IMG/VR virus record: IMGVR_UViG_2512047041_000006
Source of the DNA: a virus
Taxonomy: Duplodnaviria > Heunggongvirae > Uroviricota > Caudoviricetes
Direction: 5' to 3' (one strand)
Length of the DNA: 47,976 bases
Position numbers and translations under genes: made by a program. Below are positions 1,422 through 23,402 of this stretch, piece after piece. The notes beneath the pieces were generated by a model. That model ran no database searches, had not been told where the DNA came from, and was given only the letters and a program-made list of their open reading frames with translations. Each line of letters opens with the position of its first letter. The first letter of the stretch is position 1.

Positions 1422-2876
1422 TTAAAAATCAGCCTGACTTGGGATCAGTTTTTGCCAGATAACTGAAACGTATTTTGCCTGGTAACGGGCGTCATCAAGT
1501 GCATTATGGCGCTCACCTTCGAATGGAATAGCCGTTCTGGCATCGAAGTCTATGGCTTTCCCCAGCTCAACGATTGTGCGTACATCGCGATCGTTGTAGT
1601 AACGCCACGGGCAGGGGATCCCCTGCCGTTCGTATGAACGGCGCAAAATCGTGTTGTCGAAGTTGGCTCCATTTCCCCAAACCTGAACAAAAAATTCACC
1701 GGAGTTTTCGTCGATAAATTCCCGCAATTGTAACAGTGCATCATCTAACGGGATTTCATCGGTCATAATGGCAGATTGCGCTTCGCGTGATTGCTTAAGC
1801 CACCATTTAATGGTGTCCCGATCAATGACTCCGCCAGCAGTTTCCAGATCGATAGTCTTACTAAATTCCGGTCCCATATCTCCGGTTTGCGGATCGAAAA
1901 ATATTGCACCTATTGAGATGATCGGGGCATCAGGATTTTTTCCCATGGTTTCAAGGTCGATCATTAGATGGTCACACGTCCTGCTGGTGGATGTGATTTC
2001 GTGATGACCGTTCACCTTAATTGAGCGATCTGCCGTCTCGCCAGTTTCATTATCGCTATCGTGATGCTGATTGCCGCCAGTGTTCTCCTTGTGTGGATGT
2101 TCAGCGCCTTCCATTTCCTCCGGATCATCTTCCTGAACTTCAACCTGATACTCTTCATCGAATGTTTCCTGGTATGTTGCGTCGCCCATCACCGCGCCAC
2201 AATCAGGGCAGTTGCCGCCGCCGGTCTGACCGCAGGCGGTGCAGACTTTTTCCACTTCCTGTTGCGCCACTGGTTCAGGCTGTTTCGTTTCTGGCTCGTT
2301 TTGTAACGCATTTGGGCTGTTTTGTTCCGCTTTTTGGTAGTTCCGTTCCGATTCATGCTGATTCTGGTTCACAGAATCGCGGGTCTGGATCCCCTTAACC
2401 CATTTCGGATCATTCGGGTCACTAATCCCTTCAACAAATTCACCACGTGATGCAGCAAGCAACTTATCGGCGTCAGGCTGGCTGATATTGGCTGCCTGCA
2501 TAATTTTGTTTACTTCGTCAGCGGTAACTTTTATCGGCTCTGGTTGTTCTGAATCTTCAGCGGTATCTACATTTTGCGGTAAGCCCGTGTATGTGCCATT
2601 TTTTCGGGCAAAATATTCTTCTTTTGTGATTTCAGTGGCGCCAGCAGCCAGTGCCTTATCCAGACCAGAAAGTTTGTTTGCGCGACCGCATTTTTCTCCG
2701 TCCTTATCTGCGAAGAGGAAATAGAACGGCCCCTCACGCTCTACAGATGGTTCAGCTTCCGGCGCGGTTTCATTTTTTGGGATATCAGATACCTCAGTTT
2801 CCACTGCATCAGTTTGTGTTTCTGATGACTGGAGAACATCAACAGTGCCCAGGTCTGTTTCTTCATTCTCAAACAC
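1422..2876 (-). CDS. DEDDh (DnaQ-like) 3'-5' exonuclease domain protein with zinc ribbon
   Basis: 484 aa; C-terminal motifs MIDLETMG / WGNGANFD / [10 protein letters not shown] typical of DEDDh exonucleases; CTACGQ...CPDCG zinc-ribbon-like motif; acidic low-complexity N-terminal half. Confidence 0.7.
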
Positions 2877-3894
2877 GCCCTTTGTCGTCAGGTATTCGCA
2901 GATATATTTTGTTCAGTGCTATGGGATCTTTGTGAATGTCGATCGGACGCTCACGGACAAGGCCAAAAATAGTTTGGCGGTCGTAGCGAAGGGCATCAGG
3001 CTGTTTGCGCATTGATGCCGAGATACGCTTCCAGTCTTCGCGGTCGTTGTCGATAACTTCATTTTTTGCCCAGCGATGGATGCTGCCGTCAATGTTTCCG
3101 GCATCCACATCACCAGGCCAGAGAGCGTAGGCCAGTTCGTCATCCAGTGTTTTCCATGTCTGCTTGTATTCGCGATGAATGGCAGCAATGACCGGGCTGA
3201 TTTTTCCTGTTGAATTTTCACTGTGCTGTTGATTGGTTCTGGCGCGGGCGAGATCAATAACAGACGTGTATTTTCCGGTTTCCTTACGTTCACCTTCGCG
3301 ACGTTTTTTCCAGATGCGCATCTCTGCCTGAATTTCGGGCCATTTGGCACCAGGCTTACATTTATGCTTAACCCACCCGATGGCATGCAGCTTAAGCTCC
3401 GGATACATGGCGTTAACTTCTGGCATTTTCATCAACGCTTCAACGATATGTCCGTCGAATGTTGCCATGTCTTCCTGCAACAATTCCTGTGCGCTAATAA
3501 CCATATCAACGGTGATGTTTTCACATGTGTCGAACTTAACCATGACAGCGTTCTGTACTTCAGGGGCCAGCTTGTCAAAAGTGACGTTCATCGGATCGGA
3601 TTCAGTCTCAACCGGGACAAAGGAAGCAGACTCCTCATCCCAGCGGTTTTCCTGCATATATTCAGCATCCCAGGAATCGAGGGCAGGGCGGGGTATGCCG
3701 GGTTTATCCTCACAGACAATAAATTTATAAGCGCAGTCCTGAGCTGCAGGGAATTGCTCCAGAAATTGCCAATGAAATTTTGCGCGTGCGCGACGCTCAT
3801 CACCAGCTTCAATGGCAGTGGCCACCGCAACAGCGCTATCTTCTTTTATGGCCTGTTCATCAGGAATAGCAGCGCAAATAAAGACCTTACTCAT
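2869..3894 (-). CDS. Hypothetical early-left operon protein
   Basis: 341-aa ORF, translationally coupled (8-nt overlap) to the exonuclease gene; no family recognised. Confidence 0.5.
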
Positions 3895-11486: not shown

Positions 11487-11514
11487 AACCCGCTTCGGCG
11501 GGTTTTGTTTTTTC
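11487..11514 (+). terminator. Rho-independent terminator after hok
   Basis: AACCCGCTTCGGCGGGTT stem-loop followed by TTTGTTTTTT. Confidence 0.6.
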
Positions 11515-12914: not shown

Positions 12915-13280
12915 ATGACTGAACGCATAGAATTTGTTTTGCCTTACCCGCCAACGGTGAACACTTACTGGCGACGTCGTGGCAGCACATATTTTGTATC
13001 AAAAGTCGGTGAGCGTTATCGCCGTGATGTGGCGCTTATTGTTCGCCAGCAGCAACTGAAATTAAACCTGTCCGGAAGGCCGGCAATAGAAATTATTGCA
13101 GAGCCACCGGATAAGCGCCGTCGTGACCTGGACAATATCCTGAAGGCACCACTGGATGTACTGACGCATGCGGGGCTGCTCATAGACGACGAGCAGTTTG
13201 ATGAAATTAATATTGTGCGCGGTCAGCTTGTTCCTGGTGGGCGGTTGGGGATAAAAATCACAGAACTGGAGTACGCATGA
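12915..13280 (+). CDS. rusA: Holliday junction resolvase RusA
   Basis: 121 aa; characteristic RusA sequence (YPPTVNTYW...RRDLDNILKAPLDVLTHAGL..DDEQ). Confidence 0.85.
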   Translation: MTERIEFVLPYPPTVNTYWRRRGSTYFVSKVGERYRRDVALIVRQQQLKLNLSGRPAIEIIAEPPDKRRRDLDNILKAPLDVLTHAGLLIDDEQFDEINIVRGQLVPGGRLGIKITELEYA

Positions 13281-13966
13281 ATAACCAGTATTTACAGTTT
13301 GTTCGTGAGCAACTCATGATTGCCACCGCCGATTTGAGTGGATCAACAAAAGGGCAGCTTGAGGCCTGGCAGGAGAATGCCATGTTTGATACAGGGCGTT
13401 ACAGGCGTAAAAAAATCCGGTACCGCGATGAAGTGACTGGAAAAATGATAACGCGGGATAATCCACCAATCCCGGGAAAGCAATCGCTGGCGAAGGGGGT
13501 GTCAATTCCTCTCGTCAGTCCGGTTGAGTTTTCGACATCATCGTGGCGGCGGGCTGTTCTGTCTCTTGAAGAACATCATAAAGCCTGGTTGTTGTGGTGT
13601 TACAGCGGGAGTATTTGTTGGGAATATCAGATCGCGATAACGCAGTGGGTGTGGAATGAATTTAAAACCCGGTACGGCACCAGAAAAATTGCAGGGAAAA
13701 CGCAGGAGCGCGTGAAGAAGTTGATCTGGCTGGCGGCACAGGATGTCAGAGGATGGATTACCGGGTGTGAGGTCTACCAGAGACAGGAGCTTGCCAGACT
13801 GTGTGGAGTTAAGCCTGATAACTGGAGCCATAATTATGCGAACTACTGGCGTGAGATGTGCGATATTTTTAAGAGTCTCGATAGAGAATCTGTGATTTGC
13901 ACCGTGAAAATAAGAGCGCAACAAAAAGCGACTTTTTCACGACGAGATATTGCAAAAGTCAATTAA
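13277..13966 (+). CDS. Late-gene antitermination protein Q-like
   Basis: 229-aa ORF directly after rusA and directly before a strong bidirectional terminator hairpin (tR'-like); assignment mainly positional. Confidence 0.55.
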   Translation: MNNQYLQFVREQLMIATADLSGSTKGQLEAWQENAMFDTGRYRRKKIRYRDEVTGKMITRDNPPIPGKQSLAKGVSIPLVSPVEFSTSSWRRAVLSLEEHHKAWLLWCYSGSICWEYQIAITQWVWNEFKTRYGTRKIAGKTQERVKKLIWLAAQDVRGWITGCEVYQRQELARLCGVKPDNWSHNYANYWREMCDIFKSLDRESVICTVKIRAQQKATFSRRDIAKVN

Positions 13967-14027
13967 ATAGCGTACGTTTCGTATAAATCTGATATTTTGC
14001 CGATTTTGTACGCGATGGCAAAGTAAG

Positions 14028-14057
14028 AAAAAAAACTGCCGTCAGGCGGTTTTTTTT
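14028..14057 (+). terminator. tR'-like intrinsic terminator downstream of Q
   Basis: A8-CTGCC-GTCA-GGCGG-T8 hairpin flanked by A and T tracts (bidirectional). Confidence 0.65.
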
Positions 14058-14179
14058 ATGCCCAAAATCGCGTCAGTACAGTAAACACGCTGGTGGTTGC
14101 GAATACGGGTCTTTCAGCTTGCTGGCTTTTTCGACAAGAGTTATTGGTATGTCACGTTAACCGGAAAAAGGAAAAAGAC

Positions 14180-14377
14180 ATGCTAAAACAGCAGGATATG
14201 ACAGAAACCGCCAGAGTGGTGTTTAATGAATTAAGCGTTACCGAACCGGCGACAGTCGGGGAGATAGCGCAGAATACTTACCTTTCACGCGAACGCTGCC
14301 AGTTAATACTGACCCAGCTGGTTATGGCGGGTCTGGCAGACTATCAGTTCGGTTGTTACAGACGCCTTCAGTCCTGA
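14180..14377 (+). CDS. Small winged-helix DNA-binding protein
   Basis: 65-aa product from ATG 14180; ORF track extends it to 14093 from a GTG. Confidence 0.45.
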   Translation: MLKQQDMTETARVVFNELSVTEPATVGEIAQNTYLSRERCQLILTQLVMAGLADYQFGCYRRLQS

Positions 14378-14387
14378 AGGCTTTTTT
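14364..14387 (+). terminator. Rho-independent terminator
   Basis: GCCTTCA-GTCC-TGAAGGC hairpin followed by TTTTTT; overlaps stop of wHTH gene. Confidence 0.55.
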
Positions 14388-14403
14388 ATTTGTGGTAAAT
14401 GGG

Positions 14404-14434
14404 CGGCTGGTGGGTGTTAGGGGCACCCACCAGC
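14404..14434. promoter_or_regulatory. Perfect 12-bp-arm inverted repeat (candidate operator) upstream of methyltransferase
   Basis: GGCTGGTGGGTG-N7-CACCCACCAGCC; each arm carries the Chi octamer GCTGGTGG, one per strand. Confidence 0.4.
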
Positions 14435-14527
14435 CATCTGCTCATGCGTTGGGTTCACAAGCAAACCTCAGGCCCACTGCTTTGCGCAAAAGCAGAATGA
14501 GCCTATCAGAGACAGGCTTAATGATCC

Positions 14528-15577
14528 ATGCTTAATACTGTAAAAATATCCAGTTGTGAGTTAATCAACGCCGACTGCCTGGAATTTATCCGGTCGTTAC
14601 CCGAAAATTCTGTTGACCTGATAGTCACGGACCCGCCGTACTTTAAAGTGAAGCCTGAGGGCTGGGATAACCAGTGGAAGGGCGACGATGATTACCTGAA
14701 GTGGCTGGACCAGTGTCTGGCGCAGTTCTGGCGGGTGCTGAAACCTGTCGGAAGTCTTTACCTGTTCTGTGGTCATCGCCTGGCATCTGATATCGAAATC
14801 ATGATGCGTGAACGCTTCAGTGTGCTGAACCATATTATCTGGGCGAAGCCGTCCGGACGCTGGAACGGATGCAACAAGGAAAGCCTGCGGGCGTATTTCC
14901 CCGCCACAGAGCGCATTCTGTTCGCGGAACATTATCAGGGGCCGTATCGTCCGAAAGATGCCGGGTATGCGGCGAAGGGCAGTGCACTGAAACAGCATGT
15001 GATGGCCCCGCTGATTTCTTACTTTCGTGATGCGCGCGCTGCCCTGGGGATAACGGCAAAACAGATTGCAGATGCCACAGGAAAGAAAAACATGGTGTCG
15101 CACTGGTTCAGTGCCAGTCAGTGGCAGCTACCGAACGAAAGCGATTATCTGAAATTACAGTCGCTGTTTGCCCGGGTGGCAGAAGAGAAACATCAGCGCG
15201 GTGAACTGGAAAAGCCCCACCACCAGCTGGTGGATACGTATACGTCACTGAACCGGCAGTATGTGGAGCTGCAGAGTGAATATAAGCATCTGCGGCGGTA
15301 TTTTGGTGTGACGGCGCAGGTGCCGTACACGGATGTGTGGACACATAAACCGGTGCAGTTCTATCCCGGGAAACATCCGTGCGAAAAACCGGCAGAAATG
15401 CTGCAGCAGATAATCAGCGCAAGCAGTCGTCCGGGTGACCTGGTTGCAGATTTTTTTATGGGCTCAGGTTCAACGGTAAAAGCGGCACTGGCGCTTGGGC
15501 GTCGTGCGATTGGCGTTGAACTGGAGACCGGACGTTTTGAGCAGACAGTCAGGGAAGTTCAGGATTTAATCGTTTGA
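14528..15577 (+). CDS. DNA methyltransferase, N6-adenine/N4-cytosine (beta-class), orphan
   Basis: 349 aa; catalytic DPPY motif near N-terminus (LIVTDPPYF) and AdoMet motif FFMGSGST near C-terminus; no adjacent restriction endonuclease gene. Confidence 0.85.
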   Translation: MLNTVKISSCELINADCLEFIRSLPENSVDLIVTDPPYFKVKPEGWDNQWKGDDDYLKWLDQCLAQFWRVLKPVGSLYLFCGHRLASDIEIMMRERFSVLNHIIWAKPSGRWNGCNKESLRAYFPATERILFAEHYQGPYRPKDAGYAAKGSALKQHVMAPLISYFRDARAALGITAKQIADATGKKNMVSHWFSASQWQLPNESDYLKLQSLFARVAEEKHQRGELEKPHHQLVDTYTSLNRQYVELQSEYKHLRRYFGVTAQVPYTDVWTHKPVQFYPGKHPCEKPAEMLQQIISASSRPGDLVADFFMGSGSTVKAALALGRRAIGVELETGRFEQTVREVQDLIV

Positions 15578-15626
15578 AACGGATGAGATTGCAGAATTAA
15601 TTACGCACCATTATTATTCTGCTCCC

Positions 15627-15702
15627 GGCCCTTTAGCTCAGTGGTGAGAGCGAGCGACTCATAATCGCCAGGTCGCTGGTTCAAATCCAGCAAGGGCCAC
15701 CA
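15627..15702 (+). tRNA. ileZ: tRNA-Ile2 (anticodon CAT, lysidine type; ileX/ileZ-like)
   Basis: 76 nt with encoded CCA; full cloverleaf fits; near-identical to E. coli ileX as recalled. Confidence 0.85.
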
Positions 15703-15709
15703 TCACATA

Positions 15710-15786
15710 CCGCCATTAGCTCATCAGGAAAGAGCGCCAGCTTTCGAAGCTGGTTGCGCGGAGTTCGGGTCCCCGAAGGCGGTCCA
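15710..15786 (+). tRNA. tRNA-Arg-like (anticodon TCG), atypical
   Basis: 77 nt cloverleaf with encoded CCA, anticodon loop TTTCGAA; one acceptor-stem and one T-stem mismatch, T-loop TTCGGGT, discriminator T - possibly degenerate. Confidence 0.5.
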
Positions 15787-15799
15787 TTATCTGTATCCT

Positions 15800-15876
15800 G
15801 CGTTGTTAGCTCAGCCGGACAGAGCAATTGCCTTCTAAGCAATCGGTCACTGGTTCGAATCCAGTACAACGCGCCA
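15800..15876 (+). tRNA. tRNA-Arg (anticodon TCT, argU-like)
   Basis: 77 nt; canonical cloverleaf, T-loop TTCGAAT, anticodon loop CTTCTAA, encoded CCA. Confidence 0.85.
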
Positions 15877-15891
15877 CACTTATTTTCCCTG

Positions 15892-15914
15892 GCTCGCTTT
15901 TGCGGGCTTTTTTT
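15892..15914 (+). terminator. Rho-independent terminator after tRNA cluster
   Basis: GCTCGC-TTTT-GCGGGC hairpin followed by T7. Confidence 0.5.
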
Positions 15915-15920
15915 AAATGT

Positions 15921-16133
15921 CTCACAATTCAGGCGGTTGACTGTTGTCTGGTTTGCGGGGAGTTTGTTAAAAGAAACTGGCATGGTGAATCCCCCTGTGC
16001 GGAGGGGCAATCAGCGAGTAGGTATATGGGATAATCGCGGATTCAGGTGCTGGTACTGAATTCACCGGGAGGCACCCGGCACCATGCAATGGCACATAGC
16101 GCCACTCTCCAGCCCCTCTCCGGAGGGGCTTTT
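15921..16133 (+). repeat. Noncoding repeat module, copy A
   Basis: Shares ordered conserved blocks with copy B: CTCACAATTCAG, GTTGAC, TTGTTAAAA, GCATGGTGAATCCCCCTG-GCGGAGGGGC, TCACCGGGAGGCACCCGGCACCATG, AGCCCCTCTCCGGAGGGGCTTT. Confidence 0.6.
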
Positions 16134-16388
16134 CTGTGCCGGATACATCACAGTTTCTGGAACCTTAGGTACTACAGTATCAGTCAGGGTGCTATATTTT
16201 CAGATGTGATGAAAGCCTGTCAGCAGGCAGGGCGTATCGGAAATGACCCAGTAGAGAAAACGTTGACTCAGATACCGGTGCTGAGTTACCGGGAAACCGG
16301 CATCACATGACCGCTATCCTTCCAGGCCCATCCGCTCCGGTGGGCCTTTTTACTGCAGAAAACAGGTTCCCCGTTAAATGCTATGTTG

Positions 16389-16620
16389 CTCACAATTCAG
16401 TAAGTTGACAGTTGCCTGTCAGACTGGGCATTTGTTAAAAAAATTTCGCATGGTGAATCCCCCTGAGCGGAGGGGCGACTGGTGACGGTATAATCTCTGA
16501 TTATCAAAACGAGAATGACGCGGGTTTAGTGGCACCGGGCTGAACTCACCGGGAGGCACCCGGCACCATGTGCATGATGATACAGATACGCGGCTTTAGC
16601 CCCTCTCCGGAGGGGCTTTC
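16389..16620 (+). repeat. Noncoding repeat module, copy B
   Basis: Second copy 468 bp downstream of copy A; contains a perfect TATAAT (in GGTATAATCTCT) and the same three GC-rich hairpins. Confidence 0.6.
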
Positions 16621-16850
16621 TTATGGACAAAAAAAGCCCGCGCTGGGAGACGCGGGCGGCAAGGAATAAACAATAAAACGTGAAGTAATATTTCAGCTGG
16701 CGAATAATACCCCATAGTAATCACTCTGCGCAACTGCGCGGTCTTTTTCGAATTGCGGGCTGTAGTCTCCCTTCTGCCATTGTCCTGTAACTTCCGGACT
16801 TCAGCCTGCTCCTTATCTGACTCACAACATTATCCCGCCCGGGAGGATTC

Positions 16851-18704
16851 ATGGCATTTAAACACTATGACGTGGTCAGGGCGGCATCGCCGTCAGACCT
16901 TGCGAAACGACTGACACAAAAACTGAAGGAGGGCTGGCAGCCGTTTGGTAGTCCGGTGGCCATAACCCCTTATACCCTGATGCAGGCGATTGCAGCAGAA
17001 GGTGATGTGGTCGTCAGTGGTGCAACTGAGCCGGAGTGGTACTACGTCATCGTACTGGCCGGGCAATCCAATGCCATGGCTTACGGTGAAGGGCTTCCGC
17101 TTCCGGATTCATACGATGCGCCCCATCCGCGCATTAAGCAACTGGCCCGTCGTAACACAGTGACTCCCGGTGGTGAAGTATGCGTATTTAACGACATCAT
17201 TCCTGCTGACCATTGTCTGCATGATGTTCAGGATATGAGTACGATTAACCATCCCCGGGCTGACCTGAGCAAAGGGCAGTACGGCTGTGTCGGACAGGGC
17301 TTACATATTGCCAAAAAACTGCTTCCGTATATCCCTAATAATGCGGGGATCCTGCTGGTACCATGCTGTCGTGGTGGTTCGGCATTCACCCAGGGCACGG
17401 AGGGGACATTCAGCGAGTCCACGGGAGCCAGTCAGGATTCGGCTCGCTGGGGAGTGGGTAAGCCGTTATATCAGGATCTGCTTTTCCGCACGAAGGCAGC
17501 ATTGCAGAAAAACCCGAAAAACGTTTTGCTGGCGATATGCTGGATGCAGGGGGAATTCGATATGACGAATGCCAGTTACGCCCAGCAGCCAGCAGCATTT
17601 CTTGCAATGGTACAGCAGTTCCGTGCTGACCTTGCCGGGCTGGCGGCGCAGTGTCACGGTGGAAGTCCGGCATCAGTCCCCTGGATTTGTGGCGACACGA
17701 CATACGCGTGGAAACAAGAACACGGTACGCAATATGAAGTGGTATATGGTGCATATAAAGGTAAAGAATCCCAGCAGATTTATTTTGTTCCCTTTATGAC
17801 CGATGGTAGCGGAGTTAATACACCGACAAACAACCCGTCAGAAGATCCTGATATTGCCGGGTCTGGTTATTACGGTTCGGCATCCCGAACGAACAAAAAC
17901 TGGGTATCATCAAATCGCCCGACGCATTTCAGCTCATGGGCGCGTCGTGGCATTATTCCCGATCGTATGGCAACTGCTATTCTGAACGTAGCCGGTCGCA
18001 CCTTAGCCTTCATTAGTGGTAAGGCACCGGAAATCAAAGCCTCGCCCGGCGGCGACACGCCATCGGGGCCGTCTGAAGATGCATCCATACGCACAATCTC
18101 CCTGTTGCCGACAGCCGGAGACGCTGCTGCGCAGGGCTGGAGCATTAAGAATGGCGGAATTCAGTTGTCAGATGGTGTATTTAAGATCACCAAGCAGAGC
18201 AATAAAGCCTGGTCCCTGACGCGCCCGGTGGATGACGCAGTCTCCCTGCTGACACGGGGTGGCAGACTGAGCTGTAAGTTTCGACTGTCAGGCGCACTGA
18301 CCAACAACCAGTTCGGTCTGGGAATTTATCTGTATACCGATGTAGCGTTACCTGACGTCGTGGCGATGACCGGGACTGGTAACCCGTTCCTGATGTCGTT
18401 CTTCACCCAGACCACAGACGGCAAACTGAATCTGATGCATCACAAGAAAGCAGGAAACACAAAGTTGGGCGAGTTCGGGAATTACAGTAACGACTGGCAG
18501 ACGCTGGAGCTGGTGTTCACCGCCGGCAGTGCCACGGTTACTCCGAAACTGAATGGAGTGGCTGGCCCGGCATTCCAGGTCATAAAAGACAGTCTGACAC
18601 TGGGGCTGAATGCGCTGACGCTGACGGATATTACCAAAAATGCAGCGTATGGCGTTGAGATAGAAAGTCTGGTGCTGGAGATAAATGCACCGGCATCATC
18701 ATAA
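16851..18704 (+). CDS. NanS-p-like sialate O-acetylesterase (DUF1737 + SGNH/SASA esterase)
   Basis: 617 aa; SGNH motif VLAGQSNAMAYGEG; N-terminal DUF1737-like segment; position between tRNA cluster and holin as in Stx-phage late regions. Confidence 0.72.
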   Translation: MAFKHYDVVRAASPSDLAKRLTQKLKEGWQPFGSPVAITPYTLMQAIAAEGDVVVSGATEPEWYYVIVLAGQSNAMAYGEGLPLPDSYDAPHPRIKQLARRNTVTPGGEVCVFNDIIPADHCLHDVQDMSTINHPRADLSKGQYGCVGQGLHIAKKLLPYIPNNAGILLVPCCRGGSAFTQGTEGTFSESTGASQDSARWGVGKPLYQDLLFRTKAALQKNPKNVLLAICWMQGEFDMTNASYAQQPAAFLAMVQQFRADLAGLAAQCHGGSPASVPWICGDTTYAWKQEHGTQYEVVYGAYKGKESQQIYFVPFMTDGSGVNTPTNNPSEDPDIAGSGYYGSASRTNKNWVSSNRPTHFSSWARRGIIPDRMATAILNVAGRTLAFISGKAPEIKASPGGDTPSGPSEDASIRTISLLPTAGDAAAQGWSIKNGGIQLSDGVFKITKQSNKAWSLTRPVDDAVSLLTRGGRLSCKFRLSGALTNNQFGLGIYLYTDVALPDVVAMTGTGNPFLMSFFTQTTDGKLNLMHHKKAGNTKLGEFGNYSNDWQTLELVFTAGSATVTPKLNGVAGPAFQVIKDSLTLGLNALTLTDITKNAAYGVEIESLVLEINAPASS

Positions 18705-18854: not shown

Positions 18855-19070
18855 ATGTACCAGATGGAAAAAATCACAACAGGTGTGTCATACACCACGT
18901 CAGCGGTGGGAACGGGCTACTGGTTCCTGCAGTTGCTGGACAGGGTTTCCCCGTCTCAGTGGGCGGCAATAGGCGTGCTGGGGAGTCTGCTGTTTGGGCT
19001 GCTGACATATCTGACTAACCTGTATTTCAAAATCAGAGAGGACCGTCGTAAGGCTGCACGGGGAGAGTAA
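18855..19070 (+). CDS. S: Holin, pinholin class (S21-like), dual-start motif
   Basis: 71 aa beginning MYQMEK (two Met starts); two TM segments; C-terminus [22 protein letters not shown] matches phage 21 S as recalled; GGAG SD. Confidence 0.8.
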
Positions 19071-19074
19071 TTCA

Positions 19075-19419
19075 ATGACTCAAAACTATGAACTGATTGT
19101 GAAAGGGATCCGCAATTTTGAGAATAAAGTTACGGTAACTTTAGCGTTACGGGACAAAAAACGCTTTGACGGTGAAATTTTTGACCTGGACATCTCGCTG
19201 GACCGTGTTGAAGGTGCCGCGCTGGAGTTTTATGAGGCAGCAGCCAGAAGGAGCATCAGACAGGTCTTCCTGGATGTTGCTGCCGGGTTATGTGAAGGGG
19301 ATGAGCAGTCGCCGGAAAAGCGCCCCGTAATTTTAGAGGCGCAGGATGTGTTGATAACCTACAGAGGAAAACTACCGGGAATAATTACGGGTTCTCTGAA
19401 GAGTCCGCCGAAATGGTAA
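19075..19419 (+). CDS. Hypothetical protein between holin and endolysin
   Basis: 114-aa ORF, GGGGAG SD; protein-like composition. Confidence 0.45.
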   Translation: MTQNYELIVKGIRNFENKVTVTLALRDKKRFDGEIFDLDISLDRVEGAALEFYEAAARRSIRQVFLDVAAGLCEGDEQSPEKRPVILEAQDVLITYRGKLPGIITGSLKSPPKW

Positions 19420-19657
19420 TTTTACCAGCATATTTTTCATCCAGTAATACAGCAAGCCGCCTGAAAGAGTCTTGTTGTTCCTGAGACCATTTGGGATTGC
19501 ATGATTCAAACTGGATTGATGCCAGCGTTGATTGCATCTGTTCCCTTGGAATTGAGAATGCCAGATATGAGAAGGCGACGGTAAGGGTATTCACGTCTTC
19601 CCGAAGCCTGGAAATGCTGTCGAGCAACTCCTGTAGAGAAATGGTGTTATTGTCCAT
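19385..19657 (-). CDS. Hypothetical protein, antisense orientation within lysis cassette
   Basis: 90-aa ORF with GAGGA SD 8 nt upstream of ATG; convergent with 19075-19419 and overlapping it by 35 nt. Confidence 0.4.
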   Translation of the reverse strand: MDNNTISLQELLDSISRLREDVNTLTVAFSYLAFSIPREQMQSTLASIQFESCNPKWSQEQQDSFRRLAVLLDEKYAGKITISADSSENP

Positions 19658-19762: not shown

Positions 19763-20296
19763 ATGAACGCAAAAATCAGATACGGCCTGTCGGCTGCCGT
19801 TCTGGCGCTGATTGCCGCTGGTGCGCCTGCGCCTGACATTCTCGACCAGTTTCTGGATGAAAAGGAAGGTAACCACACCACGGCATACCGTGATGGTGCG
19901 GGTATCTGGACCATCTGCCGCGGTGCCATCCTGGTGGATGGCAAACCTGTCGTTCCGGGCATGAAGTTGTCGAAGGAAAAATGCGACCGGGTTAACGCCA
20001 TTGAGCGTGATAAGGCGCTGGCATGGGTGGAGAAAAACATCAGAGTGCCATTGAGTGAACCCCAGAAAGCGGGGATCGCGTCATTCTGTCCGTACAACAT
20101 TGGTCCCGGTAAGTGTTTCCCGTCGACGTTTTATAAACGAATTAATGCAGGTGATCGCAGGGGAGCGTGTGAGGCGATTCGCTGGTGGATTAAGGACGGT
20201 GGCAGAGACTGCCGTATTCGTTCAAACAACTGCTACGGTCAGGTATCCCGTCGTGACCAGGAGAGCGCGCTGGCGTGCTGGGGAATCGACAGATAA
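19763..20296 (+). CDS. R: SAR endolysin (GH24 phage lysozyme, R21-like)
   Basis: 177 aa; weakly hydrophobic Gly/Ala-rich N-terminal signal-anchor-release segment; catalytic E-x8-D-x5-T triad (DEKEGNHTTAYRDGAGIWT). Confidence 0.85.
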   Translation: MNAKIRYGLSAAVLALIAAGAPAPDILDQFLDEKEGNHTTAYRDGAGIWTICRGAILVDGKPVVPGMKLSKEKCDRVNAIERDKALAWVEKNIRVPLSEPQKAGIASFCPYNIGPGKCFPSTFYKRINAGDRRGACEAIRWWIKDGGRDCRIRSNNCYGQVSRRDQESALACWGIDR

Positions 20297-20386: not shown

Positions 20387-20424
20387 AAAACCCCGTTTGT
20401 TGGCACCAAGCGGGGTTTTGTGTT
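20387..20424 (+). terminator. Candidate terminator between R and Rz
   Basis: AAAACCCCG...CGGGGTTTT hairpin followed by GTGTTT. Confidence 0.45.
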
Positions 20425-20494
20425 TCCTGACTCCGGAAAAGTCAAAGGAGAAAGTGTGTTTGATTTTAGCAAACTGATTCGGGAGATTCGAGTG

Positions 20495-20593
20495 ATGGCT
20501 GAAAAATTATCCACCTGGAAGTTCATTCTTATCTGGCTGGTGTTTGTGATTATGGCCTCCGGTTATTTCATCGGTCAGATACGCTGGTGGTGA
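20495..20593 (+). CDS. Small hydrophobic peptide (32 aa) upstream of Rz
   Basis: ATG 20495 with GGGAG SD; MAEKLSTWKFILIWLVFVIMASGYFIGQIRWW; stop 2 nt before Rz start. Confidence 0.3.
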   Translation: MAEKLSTWKFILIWLVFVIMASGYFIGQIRWW

Positions 20594-20594
20594 A

Positions 20595-21061
20595 ATGAAC
20601 CGCGTACTGTGCGTGGTCATCATTGCCCTGCTGGTGGCCTGTGGTGCGCTTAGTCTGGGGCTGAATCATTACCGTGAAACGCCATTACCTACAAAGCCCA
20701 GCGCGACAAAAATGTCAGAGAACTGAAGCTGGCGAACGCGGCAATTACTGACATGCAGATGCGTCAGCGTGATGTTGCTGCGCTCGATGCAAAATACACG
20801 AAGGAGTTAGCTGATGCGAAAGCTGAAAATGAAACTCTTCGCGCTGACGTTGCCGCTGGTCGTAAGCGCCTGCGTATCAACGCCACCTGTCCAGGTCCCG
20901 TGCGTGAAGCCACCGGCACCGCCCGCGTGGATAATGCAACCGGCCCCCAACTGGCAGACACCGTTACACGGGATTATTTCACCCTCAGAGAGCGGCTGAT
21001 GACGATGCAGAAGCAACTGGAAGGGGCGCAGGAATATATCCGTACTCAGTGCCTGAAATAA
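20595..21061 (+). pseudogene. Rz: Rz i-spanin, interrupted by frameshift
   Basis: N-terminal TM part in frame 0 (20595-20726, 43 codons, ends NHYR-ETPLP..stop); lambda-Rz-like C-terminal part ([12 protein letters not shown]...) in frame 2 from 20678 to 21061; consistent with a 1-nt deletion near 20677. Confidence 0.7.
20814..20999 (+). CDS. Rz1: Rz1 o-spanin lipoprotein
   Basis: 61 aa; lipobox LVVSAC; Pro-rich; embedded in +1 frame of Rz C-terminal region. Confidence 0.8.
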
Positions 21062-21870: not shown

Positions 21871-22043
21871 AATGTTTCCCCATATTCAGTGTTGCTGATT
21901 TGTATTATCTGAAGTTGCTTTTACGTTAATTTGATGCAGATCAATTAATACGATACCTGCGTCATAATTGATTATTTCTCGTGGTTTGATGGCGTACACA
22001 GTGAACCGCCCCGGGTTTCCTGGAGAGTGTTTTATCTGTGAAC

Positions 22044-22934
22044 TCAGGCTGCCAGATCATCGTTTCCGATGGAAGCATAATAAGCTTTTTCTGCTTCTGC
22101 CGGAGGAGTATGGCCCAGCCTTTCCAGCAATCGTCGATTGTTATACCAGTCCACCCACGTGAGTGTGGCCAGTTCCACTTCTGCACGGTTTTTCCAGCTC
22201 TTACGGTGTATTACCTCCGCTTTGTAAAGACCATTGATGCTCTCCGCCATCGCGTTGTCATACGAGTCGCCTGTACTTCCTGTTGATGCCAGTAATCCGG
22301 CTTCCTTAAGCCGCTGTGTGTAGGCCAGCGATACATACTGAGAACCTTTATCACTGTGATGGACCGTGCCGGACGGTCGACGGGCCCATAACGCCTGCTC
22401 CAGTGCATCCAGCACGAATGTCGTTTCCATGGACGATGAGACCCGCCACCCCACGATGTATCCGGCAAACACATCAATGATGAACGCCACATAGACGAAG
22501 CCCCGCCATGTGCTGACGTAAGTAAAATCAGCCACCCACAGCTGGTCAGGTCGTTCTGCCACGAACTGACGGTTTACGCGGTCGCCTGCGGCAACGGCTT
22601 TCCGGCTGATGGTCGTACGGACCTTTTTACCCCGGAGAACACCGGCAAGTCCCATAACCGCCATGAGACGTGCCACAGTGCATCTGGCCACTCTGATACC
22701 TTCCCGTAACAACTGACGCCAGACTTTACGCACACCGTATACCTTGTGATTTTCATCGTATACGCGCTGTATCTCTTTCTTCAGCCAGTCATCGCGCTGC
22801 GCACGGGCACTGCGTTTATCCGGATGATGTCGCTGTTGCTGACAGTGGTAATACGTTGACGGGGCAATATGCAGTTCGCTGCATAGCGGTCCGACCCCGT
22901 ACTGCTCACGCAGCTTATCCAGCAGTGGCATCAT
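22044..22934 (-). CDS. IS3-family transposase OrfB (DDE integrase domain)
   Basis: 296 aa, IS629-type OrfB sequence; start overlaps orfA end at an A-rich site consistent with frameshift fusion. Confidence 0.9.
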
Positions 22935-23257
22935 TTTTTCCAGAGGCGGTCGAACTCCGCCTTCGCAAAATAAGCGGAAGCCTGGCGAAGGATATCGTTA
23001 CTGCGGCGCAGTTCACGATTTTCACGTTCCAGCTCTTTCAGACGCTGACGTTCAGCGGTGGTGAGCCCTCCATCACCGCCCCCGGTATCCCGCTCATGCT
23101 GGCGAACCCAGACACGCAGAGTCTCCGGCGTACAGCCAATCTTTGGAGCAATGGAACAAATTGTCGCCCATTGTGAGTCATATTCGCTCTGACTTTCCAG
23201 AACCATACGGACTGCCCGTTGACGGACTTCGGGGGAAAAACGAGTATTTTTAGTCAT
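22931..23257 (-). CDS. IS3-family transposase OrfA (HTH)
   Basis: 108 aa; leucine-zipper-like C-terminus; ends in TGGAAAAAATGA overlapping orfB start. Confidence 0.9.
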
Positions 23258-23390
23258 CCTGTTTACCTCTTTCTCAGGAAGTTTAGTCTCCAGGATTCCC
23301 GGGGCGGTTCACACATGTTGTGATAAACCTTATATAGATGATAATCATTATCATTTTCGTGGGTCCTTTCCGGCGATCCGACCGGTTACG

Positions 23391-23402
23391 GGGCGGCGAC
23401 CT
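23391..23402 (+). other. cosN cohesive-end site (lambda type)
   Basis: GGGCGGCGACCT preceded by ...GATCCGACCGGTTACG and followed by CGCGGATTTTCACTATTTATGAAAATTTTCCGG, matching lambda genome ends and cosB as recalled. Confidence 0.8.

Follow-up and report, generated by a model that had tools for sequence, protein, structure and literature searches.

A shared one-nucleotide deletion splits the Rz spanin gene, with embedded Rz1 intact, in an Escherichia coli lambdoid prophage

The DNA analysed here (the window) is the whole 47,976-nucleotide stretch of the Caudoviricetes record IMGVR_UViG_2512047041_000006 and represents a lambdoid prophage which adjoins ompW in Escherichia coli. In its lysis cassette, located at 18.8–21.1 kb of the window, the gene for the i-spanin Rz has lost a single nucleotide at codon 28, so that its two parts are read in different frames, and the o-spanin gene Rz1 embedded within it is intact. 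It is highly probable, in our judgement, that this lesion is a genuine, vertically inherited loss-of-function mutation of the i-spanin gene. The features concerned are:

20595..20726, + strand: 5' fragment of Rz (i-spanin); PHROG 13 positions 1–34, alignment to intact Rz
20677..20678, + strand: site of the 1-nt deletion, T gone from codon 28, GAT (Asp); DNA alignments to lambda Rz and the nearest intact allele
20678..21061, + strand: 3' part of Rz, in the −1 frame; Pfam PF03245 Phage_lysis, E=2.1e-51, and translation
20814..20999, + strand: Rz1 (o-spanin) lipoprotein gene, intact, 61 aa; Pfam PF06085, E=1e-19

The initial annotation, made by reading the sequence without database searches, had the N-terminal part of Rz ending after 43 codons at the TGA 20724–20726, and this is what the translation gives. 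From the ATG at 20595 there are 27 native codons, encoding the cytoplasmic N-terminus, the transmembrane domain and the residues NHYR (the native residues from this start codon read MNRVLCVVIIALLVACGALSLGLNHYR), followed by 16 out-of-frame codons and the TGA, so that the open reading frame 20595–20726 encodes 43 aa. The remainder of Rz was said to resume at 20678 after a TGA at 20675–20677, and it does; the TGA lies ahead of it in the frame starting at 20597, and the translation is open from 20678 until the TAA at 21059–21061. This 3' part comprises the entire periplasmic domain, residues 29–155 of the intact protein, with both conserved Cys present.

Alignment to intact Rz genes, which had been proposed as a check, was made against lambda Rz (NC_001416, 45966–46427) and the nearest uninterrupted allele, that of E. 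coli 2017C-4173W12 (WP_001082539.1). The 467-nt gene shows exactly one gap in either DNA alignment, a T missing at 20677/20678, in agreement with the suggestion that one base had been lost around 20677, leaving GAAAC for GATAAC. The junction reads CGTGA-AACGCC in the window and CGTGATAACGCC in both lambda Rz and the 2017C-4173W12 allele. The missing T falls between GA and AAC, outside any homopolymer run, and this one-base gap is the sole difference from the intact allele over the 701 nt compared. All coordinates in the initial annotation are correct.

The 3' part aligns with positions 1–125 of the 126 in the PF03245 profile, the periplasmic domain matches PHROG 13 (Rz-like spanin) with E=6.8e-63, and the two pieces jointly span the full Rz profile, a degree of similarity that points to homology far beyond chance. 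In the repaired protein both periplasmic Cys are kept, C99 and C153, and align with those of lambda Rz, where C99 and C152 are the Cys of the intermolecular disulfides. The position is also that of an i-spanin gene, with Rz distal in a holin–endolysin cassette and Rz1 embedded in it. The anchor (20595–20675) and the periplasmic domain (20678–21061) do not share a continuous frame, and because they are split in this way the gene is assigned to the Rz family as a pseudogene rather than as a functional member. Rz of the window is thus best described, as far as its sequence goes, as a lambda Rz-family pseudogene with a standard embedded Rz1.

Rz1 contains no stop within its 61 codons and has an AAGGAG at 20801–20806, 7 nt upstream of its ATG at 20814. 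As had been claimed for it, the gene is intact and shares the frame of the N-terminal piece of Rz, being +1 relative to the C-terminal piece. Its product carries LVVSAC, with the lipobox VSAC and Cys20, and Cys30 and a Pro-rich region are conserved with lambda Rz1; as expected of an o-spanin, it therefore has a lipoprotein signal that contains the lipobox Cys, a mature domain that is short and rich in Pro, and a conserved Cys for the disulfide.

Upstream of Rz, the cassette contains four further genes on the same strand:

18855..19070, + strand: class II (phage 21 S-type) holin, 71 aa, first gene of the cassette, intact; Pfam PF04971 Phage_holin_2_1, E=9e-33
19075..19419, + strand: YdfR/DUF1327 gene between holin and endolysin; Pfam PF07041, E=7e-43
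19763..20296, + strand: endolysin (phage lysozyme family), 177 aa, intact; Pfam PF00959, E=1.3e-23, and PHROG 7, E=2.5e-61
20456..20593, + strand: small membrane-protein ORF, 45 aa, conserved; PHROG 6632, E=1.4e-29, no Pfam match

The holin is labelled "class II holin family protein" by PGAP in the E. coli strains N32, AF57 and AR_0013. The endolysin sequence begins MNAKIRYGLSAAVLALIAAGAPAP, and its Ala/Gly-rich N-terminus resembles a SAR signal-anchor. The cassette is of the P21 type, with a pinholin and a probable SAR-endolysin. The 45-aa ORF has a GTG start with AGGAG 5 nt upstream, and a single nucleotide separates its TGA stop from the Rz ATG; it encodes a C-terminal hydrophobic helix and is found with exactly this sequence on at least 1000 contigs, with cluster members also in Yersinia, and is annotated by PGAP in some genomes only. 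It may be an extra component of the lysis cassette. Two other elements were seen in this region. A strong terminator-like hairpin of 13 pairs with a T-rich tail (20387–20419) lies inside the lysis operon, within the gap of about 300 bp that separates the endolysin gene from the small ORF and Rz, and a 90-aa ORF on the − strand (19385–19657) runs antisense to the end of ydfR and the ydfR–endolysin spacer; the latter is annotated as hypothetical protein WP_000369850.1 in all relatives and has no Pfam hit on record.

The consequences of the deletion can be predicted from what is known of lambda, where Rz is a type II inner-membrane protein whose periplasmic coiled coils bind the outer-membrane lipoprotein Rz1. 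The need for Rz in outer-membrane disruption at lysis is established in lambda and phage 21 homologues, and lambda mutants in which one or the other spanin gene has been knocked out fail to lyse, their cells persisting as spheres enclosed by the outer membrane (PMC5295617, PMC6139136). Every nonsense mutation obtained in the periplasmic domain of lambda Rz was lysis-defective, and the length of the chain is strictly required, with loss of the last two residues abolishing function (PMC5295617). In the window, translation from the Rz start would yield a 43-residue peptide consisting of the transmembrane anchor and 16 junk residues, and the periplasmic coiled-coil domain would be stranded in the −1 frame, with neither anchor nor export signal. 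Rz1 should still be producible from its own ribosome-binding site and frame, but would be partnerless. On prophage induction the holin and endolysin would still destroy the cell wall, and the final step, disruption of the outer membrane by the spanin complex, would be expected to fail; cells would turn into fragile spheres, from which virions would either not escape or escape only with the help of shear or of low divalent-cation levels. Given that the periplasmic domain has no start and Rz1 no partner, an i-spanin-null phenotype upon induction is the expected outcome. A functional two-piece Rz was rejected, as the 3' frame has no start codon near its 5' end; its first ATG, at 20753, is not preceded by a Shine–Dalgarno sequence, and the product from it would have no anchor or signal peptide.

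The defect may be mild under some conditions, given that lambda spanin mutants still lyse in shaken cultures to which no Mg2+ is added, in which shear breaks any spheres whose outer membrane is not stabilised by divalent cations at millimolar levels (PMC6139136). The host strains also contain one to four other Rz-like loci (2–5 places per record), which could in principle supply a spanin if co-induced.

A further way in which some Rz might be made is a −1 ribosomal frameshift, programmed or fortuitous, in the 49-nt zone 20678–20726, most plausibly at CAAAAAT (20707–20713), the product of which would be a 155-aa Rz with residues 28–38 replaced and a spanin activity reduced but non-zero. Both frames are open throughout this zone, it contains an A5 run where tRNA-Lys could re-pair in the −1 frame, and the resulting fusion would be exactly as long as wild-type Rz. 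No X XXY YYZ heptamer occurs in 20678–20726, however; there is only CAAAAAT, where re-pairing in the −1 frame is impossible for the P-site codon ACA. Intact alleles and lambda share this CAAAAAT, which therefore did not arise as a recoding site. Nor was a stimulatory RNA structure found on folding the 88 nt downstream (20713–20800), which at −26.2 kcal/mol fold no better than shuffles (mean −24.3 kcal/mol, z=−0.64). The replaced segment would fall at the start of coiled-coil CC1, which in lambda Rz spans residues 27–87 (PMC5295617). The two-frame arrangement is furthermore limited to one rare lineage: it occurs in 3 of the 5,426 complete E. coli genomes, whereas a single frame is present in about 2,700 of them and in each of the 213 matching phage records. 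Programmed frameshifting was rejected on the absence of a heptamer and on the z-score of the downstream region, and frameshifting of either kind is very improbable as an account of the split gene, although background −1 slippage on CAAAAAT, at a few events per thousand, is possible.

The preferred reading, a genuine inherited mutation, is supported by the recurrence of the deletion. A 60-nt probe across it found a perfect match in only 3/5,426 complete E. coli genomes, compared with about 2,700 that contain the uninterrupted homologous stretch with the extra base present, and the deletion occurred in none of 50,697 phage records. The three carriers, AR_0013 (CP032204), N32 (CM165895, a CSF isolate) and AF57 (OZ546943, from a UK blood culture), are the nearest complete-genome relatives of the window, and in each of them PGAP labels the gene "lysis protein; frameshifted" (RefSeq loci AM340_RS18480, ACYX5H_RS11420 and AC9VUB_RS03190, respectively). 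A 701-nt region with the deletion is identical to that of the window in all three, which have the same prophage at the same locus. The exact 43-aa product was found on 38 contigs (67 index blocks) of public assemblies, including those of E. coli HVH 187, NCTC strains and two metagenome scaffolds, and ten further loci fetched for this product all contained the deletion motif. Most deletion carriers show 0–1 substitution in Rz/Rz1; one metagenome scaffold has four, all in Rz beyond the end of Rz1. No complete RefSeq genome matches the window exactly, and it is a different genome from AR_0013, N32 and AF57, with 41 positions separating it from N32 and 22 separating it from AF57; over the 8 kb around Rz its nearest relative is the NCTC contig UGBC01000003.1, with three indel differences. 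On this distribution, the allele is derived and rare.

The initial annotation had set a real lesion against a read error, and here the identical deletion in three complete RefSeq genomes of different projects, together with the 38 public contigs, favours the former. Were the deletion an artefact of sequencing or assembly, the real genome would have GATAAC and an intact Rz. The window does contain three single-base indels (2907, 11508 and 14050) that are private to it among its closest relatives, all in T runs, and its assembly may therefore hold indel errors. The missing T of Rz, in contrast, is outside a homopolymer and is common to genomes of unrelated projects and to 10/10 further public contigs, and the carrier prophages differ from one another at other sites. 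Because the deletion is shared by three independently sequenced complete genomes and by all ten further loci, at a non-homopolymer site, a sequencing error was rejected, and an artefact of any kind is barely credible.

The three private indels differ in kind from the Rz deletion that the carriers share, and suggest that the source assembly may carry homopolymer errors. At 2907, in a gene on the − strand (1422–3894), the window has an extra T in a T run (TTTT versus TTT in N32 and AF57), so that the gene, for an 823-aa 3'-5' exonuclease, is divided between two ORFs, of 484 and 341 aa; either the window has here a second pseudogene, of very recent origin, or the extra T is a homopolymer sequencing error. 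The other two are one-base differences in T-run length, T6 versus T7 at 11508 and T8 versus T9 at 14050, the latter within the T tract that belongs to a GC-rich hairpin immediately after the gene for the antiterminator Q.

Considering whether the loss of Rz could have been selected, a domesticated spanin-null state might benefit the host lineage, for example if spontaneous induction then no longer led to the release of virions or to explosive lysis, and Rz1 would be kept because it serves a separate function. The allele has lasted long enough to occur in dozens of assemblies, some of its prophages being mosaic in the adjoining lysozyme gene, and Rz1 is intact in all carriers of the deletion. 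The near-identity of the carriers in Rz/Rz1, with 0–1 substitution in most, leaves almost no time for Rz1 to have decayed, and the intact Rz1 therefore says nothing about selection; Rz1 is intact because the lesion lies upstream of it and too little time has elapsed. Clonal expansion of the host explains the frequency of the allele, and the other lesions of the lineage look like random decay, so that a selected state is scarcely to be entertained. That the frameshift has any meaning beyond neutral decay, be it low-level slippage on CAAAAAT that delays lysis or a spanin-null state selected in a clinical E. coli lineage with Rz1 as an orphan outer-membrane lipoprotein, is most unlikely.

The history of the prophage, in which the Rz deletion would be one case of inherited loss, can be followed in part from a second event located between the lysis cassette and cos:

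22001..23312, − strand: IS3-family (IS629-like) insertion; 26-nt inverted repeats, 296-aa transposase ORF
23391..23402, + strand: cosN, identical to the cohesive-end sequence of lambda, GGGCGGCGACCT; separated from the IS by 78 bp and followed after about 185 bp by the small terminase gene

The IS629-like element has ACA on both sides and is annotated by PGAP in N32 as "IS3 family transposase, programmed frameshift". Because an exact cosN survives 78 bp from its end, packaging is not obviously disabled, and the idea that the insertion destroyed cos found no support in cosN. Wherever a deletion-bearing locus reaches the IS site, the IS is present or the locus breaks off at the IS or inside it, and the insertion therefore probably preceded the Rz deletion. 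OZ547117, the closest relative with an intact Rz, spans 1,312 bp less than the query and appears to have no IS; two other relatives with intact Rz, 2017C-4173W12 and PCP06238, have a 900-bp deletion at the IS. Later events are seen in some of the deletion carriers: AR_0013, AF57 and the loci L011 and L012 have a group II intron (ltrA) inside the IS, L011 has a second IS between ydfR and the lysozyme gene, and L012 has a frameshifted holin. A slowly decaying prophage would fit the IS, the intron, the second IS and the broken holin, and nearly all structural genes are retained. Split holin and terminase calls were seen in an NCTC contig (L010), where they are possibly sequencing errors, as single-base indels of NCTC contigs may be, and the two metagenome scaffolds (L016 and L017) have a mosaic, diverged lysozyme gene beside the same Rz deletion.

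Among known systems, lambda Rz/Rz1 is a close counterpart, an embedded two-component spanin to which the repaired Rz is 72% identical, with long stretches of identical DNA; Rz1 is 68% identical to its lambda homologue, occupies the same relative position in the +1 frame and conserves the Cys, the lipobox and the Pro-rich region. In contrast to lambda, codon 28 of Rz has lost 1 nt here, which interrupts the gene, the cassette follows the phage 21 pattern, with a class II holin and a SAR-like endolysin in addition to the DUF1327 gene and the 45-aa ORF, and about 300 bp separate the endolysin from Rz. A precedent is the resident Rac prophage of E. coli K-12, in which the i-spanin pseudogene rzpR contains an intact, annotated embedded o-spanin gene, rzoR, although Rac has undergone heavy deletion and its rzpR is a remnant truncated at the 5' end, whereas in the window the whole gene is present with a single frameshift. 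The prophages of AR_0013, N32 and AF57 differ from the window elsewhere by 22–41 substitutions or indels, and those of AR_0013 and AF57 also by the group II intron inside the IS. Stx-converting and related lambdoid phages (H-19B, CP-1639, Stx1a/Stx2a) are 92–94% identical in DNA over the small ORF and Rz/Rz1 and have the same late-region layout, but Rz is uninterrupted in all of them and none has the deletion. Two PHROGs families consist of Rz pieces only, phrog_35719 (N-terminal) and phrog_2934 (C-terminal), and fragmentary Rz calls may thus recur in phage records.

The frameshift is real but ordinary, as the allele is already flagged as frameshifted in RefSeq and the same state is known in K-12 Rac, and it has little significance beyond annotation. 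It marks the ompW-site prophage as probably unable to complete normal lysis, which helps in judging prophage activity in clinical E. coli; the 1-nt deletion and the IS629 insertion together provide a convenient clonal marker for the carrier lineage; and the locus is a clean natural example of how the embedded Rz/Rz1 architecture permits loss of one subunit with the other intact.

The late region upstream of the cassette, 13277–18704, has the layout of a Stx-converting phage, without stx:

13277–13966: Q
14528–15577: DNA methyltransferase
15627–15876: three tRNA genes
16851–18704: 617-aa SASA/NanS-p-like esterase

The first of the three tRNA genes is called Met (CAT) by ARAGORN and Ile by PGAP, and the stretch of about 1 kb between the tRNA genes and the esterase contains a gene remnant only. 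Of the 41 differences from N32, 27 cluster within 14245–15343, at the DNA methyltransferase gene and immediately upstream of it; AF57 does not differ from the window here, and this segment looks like a recombination patch.
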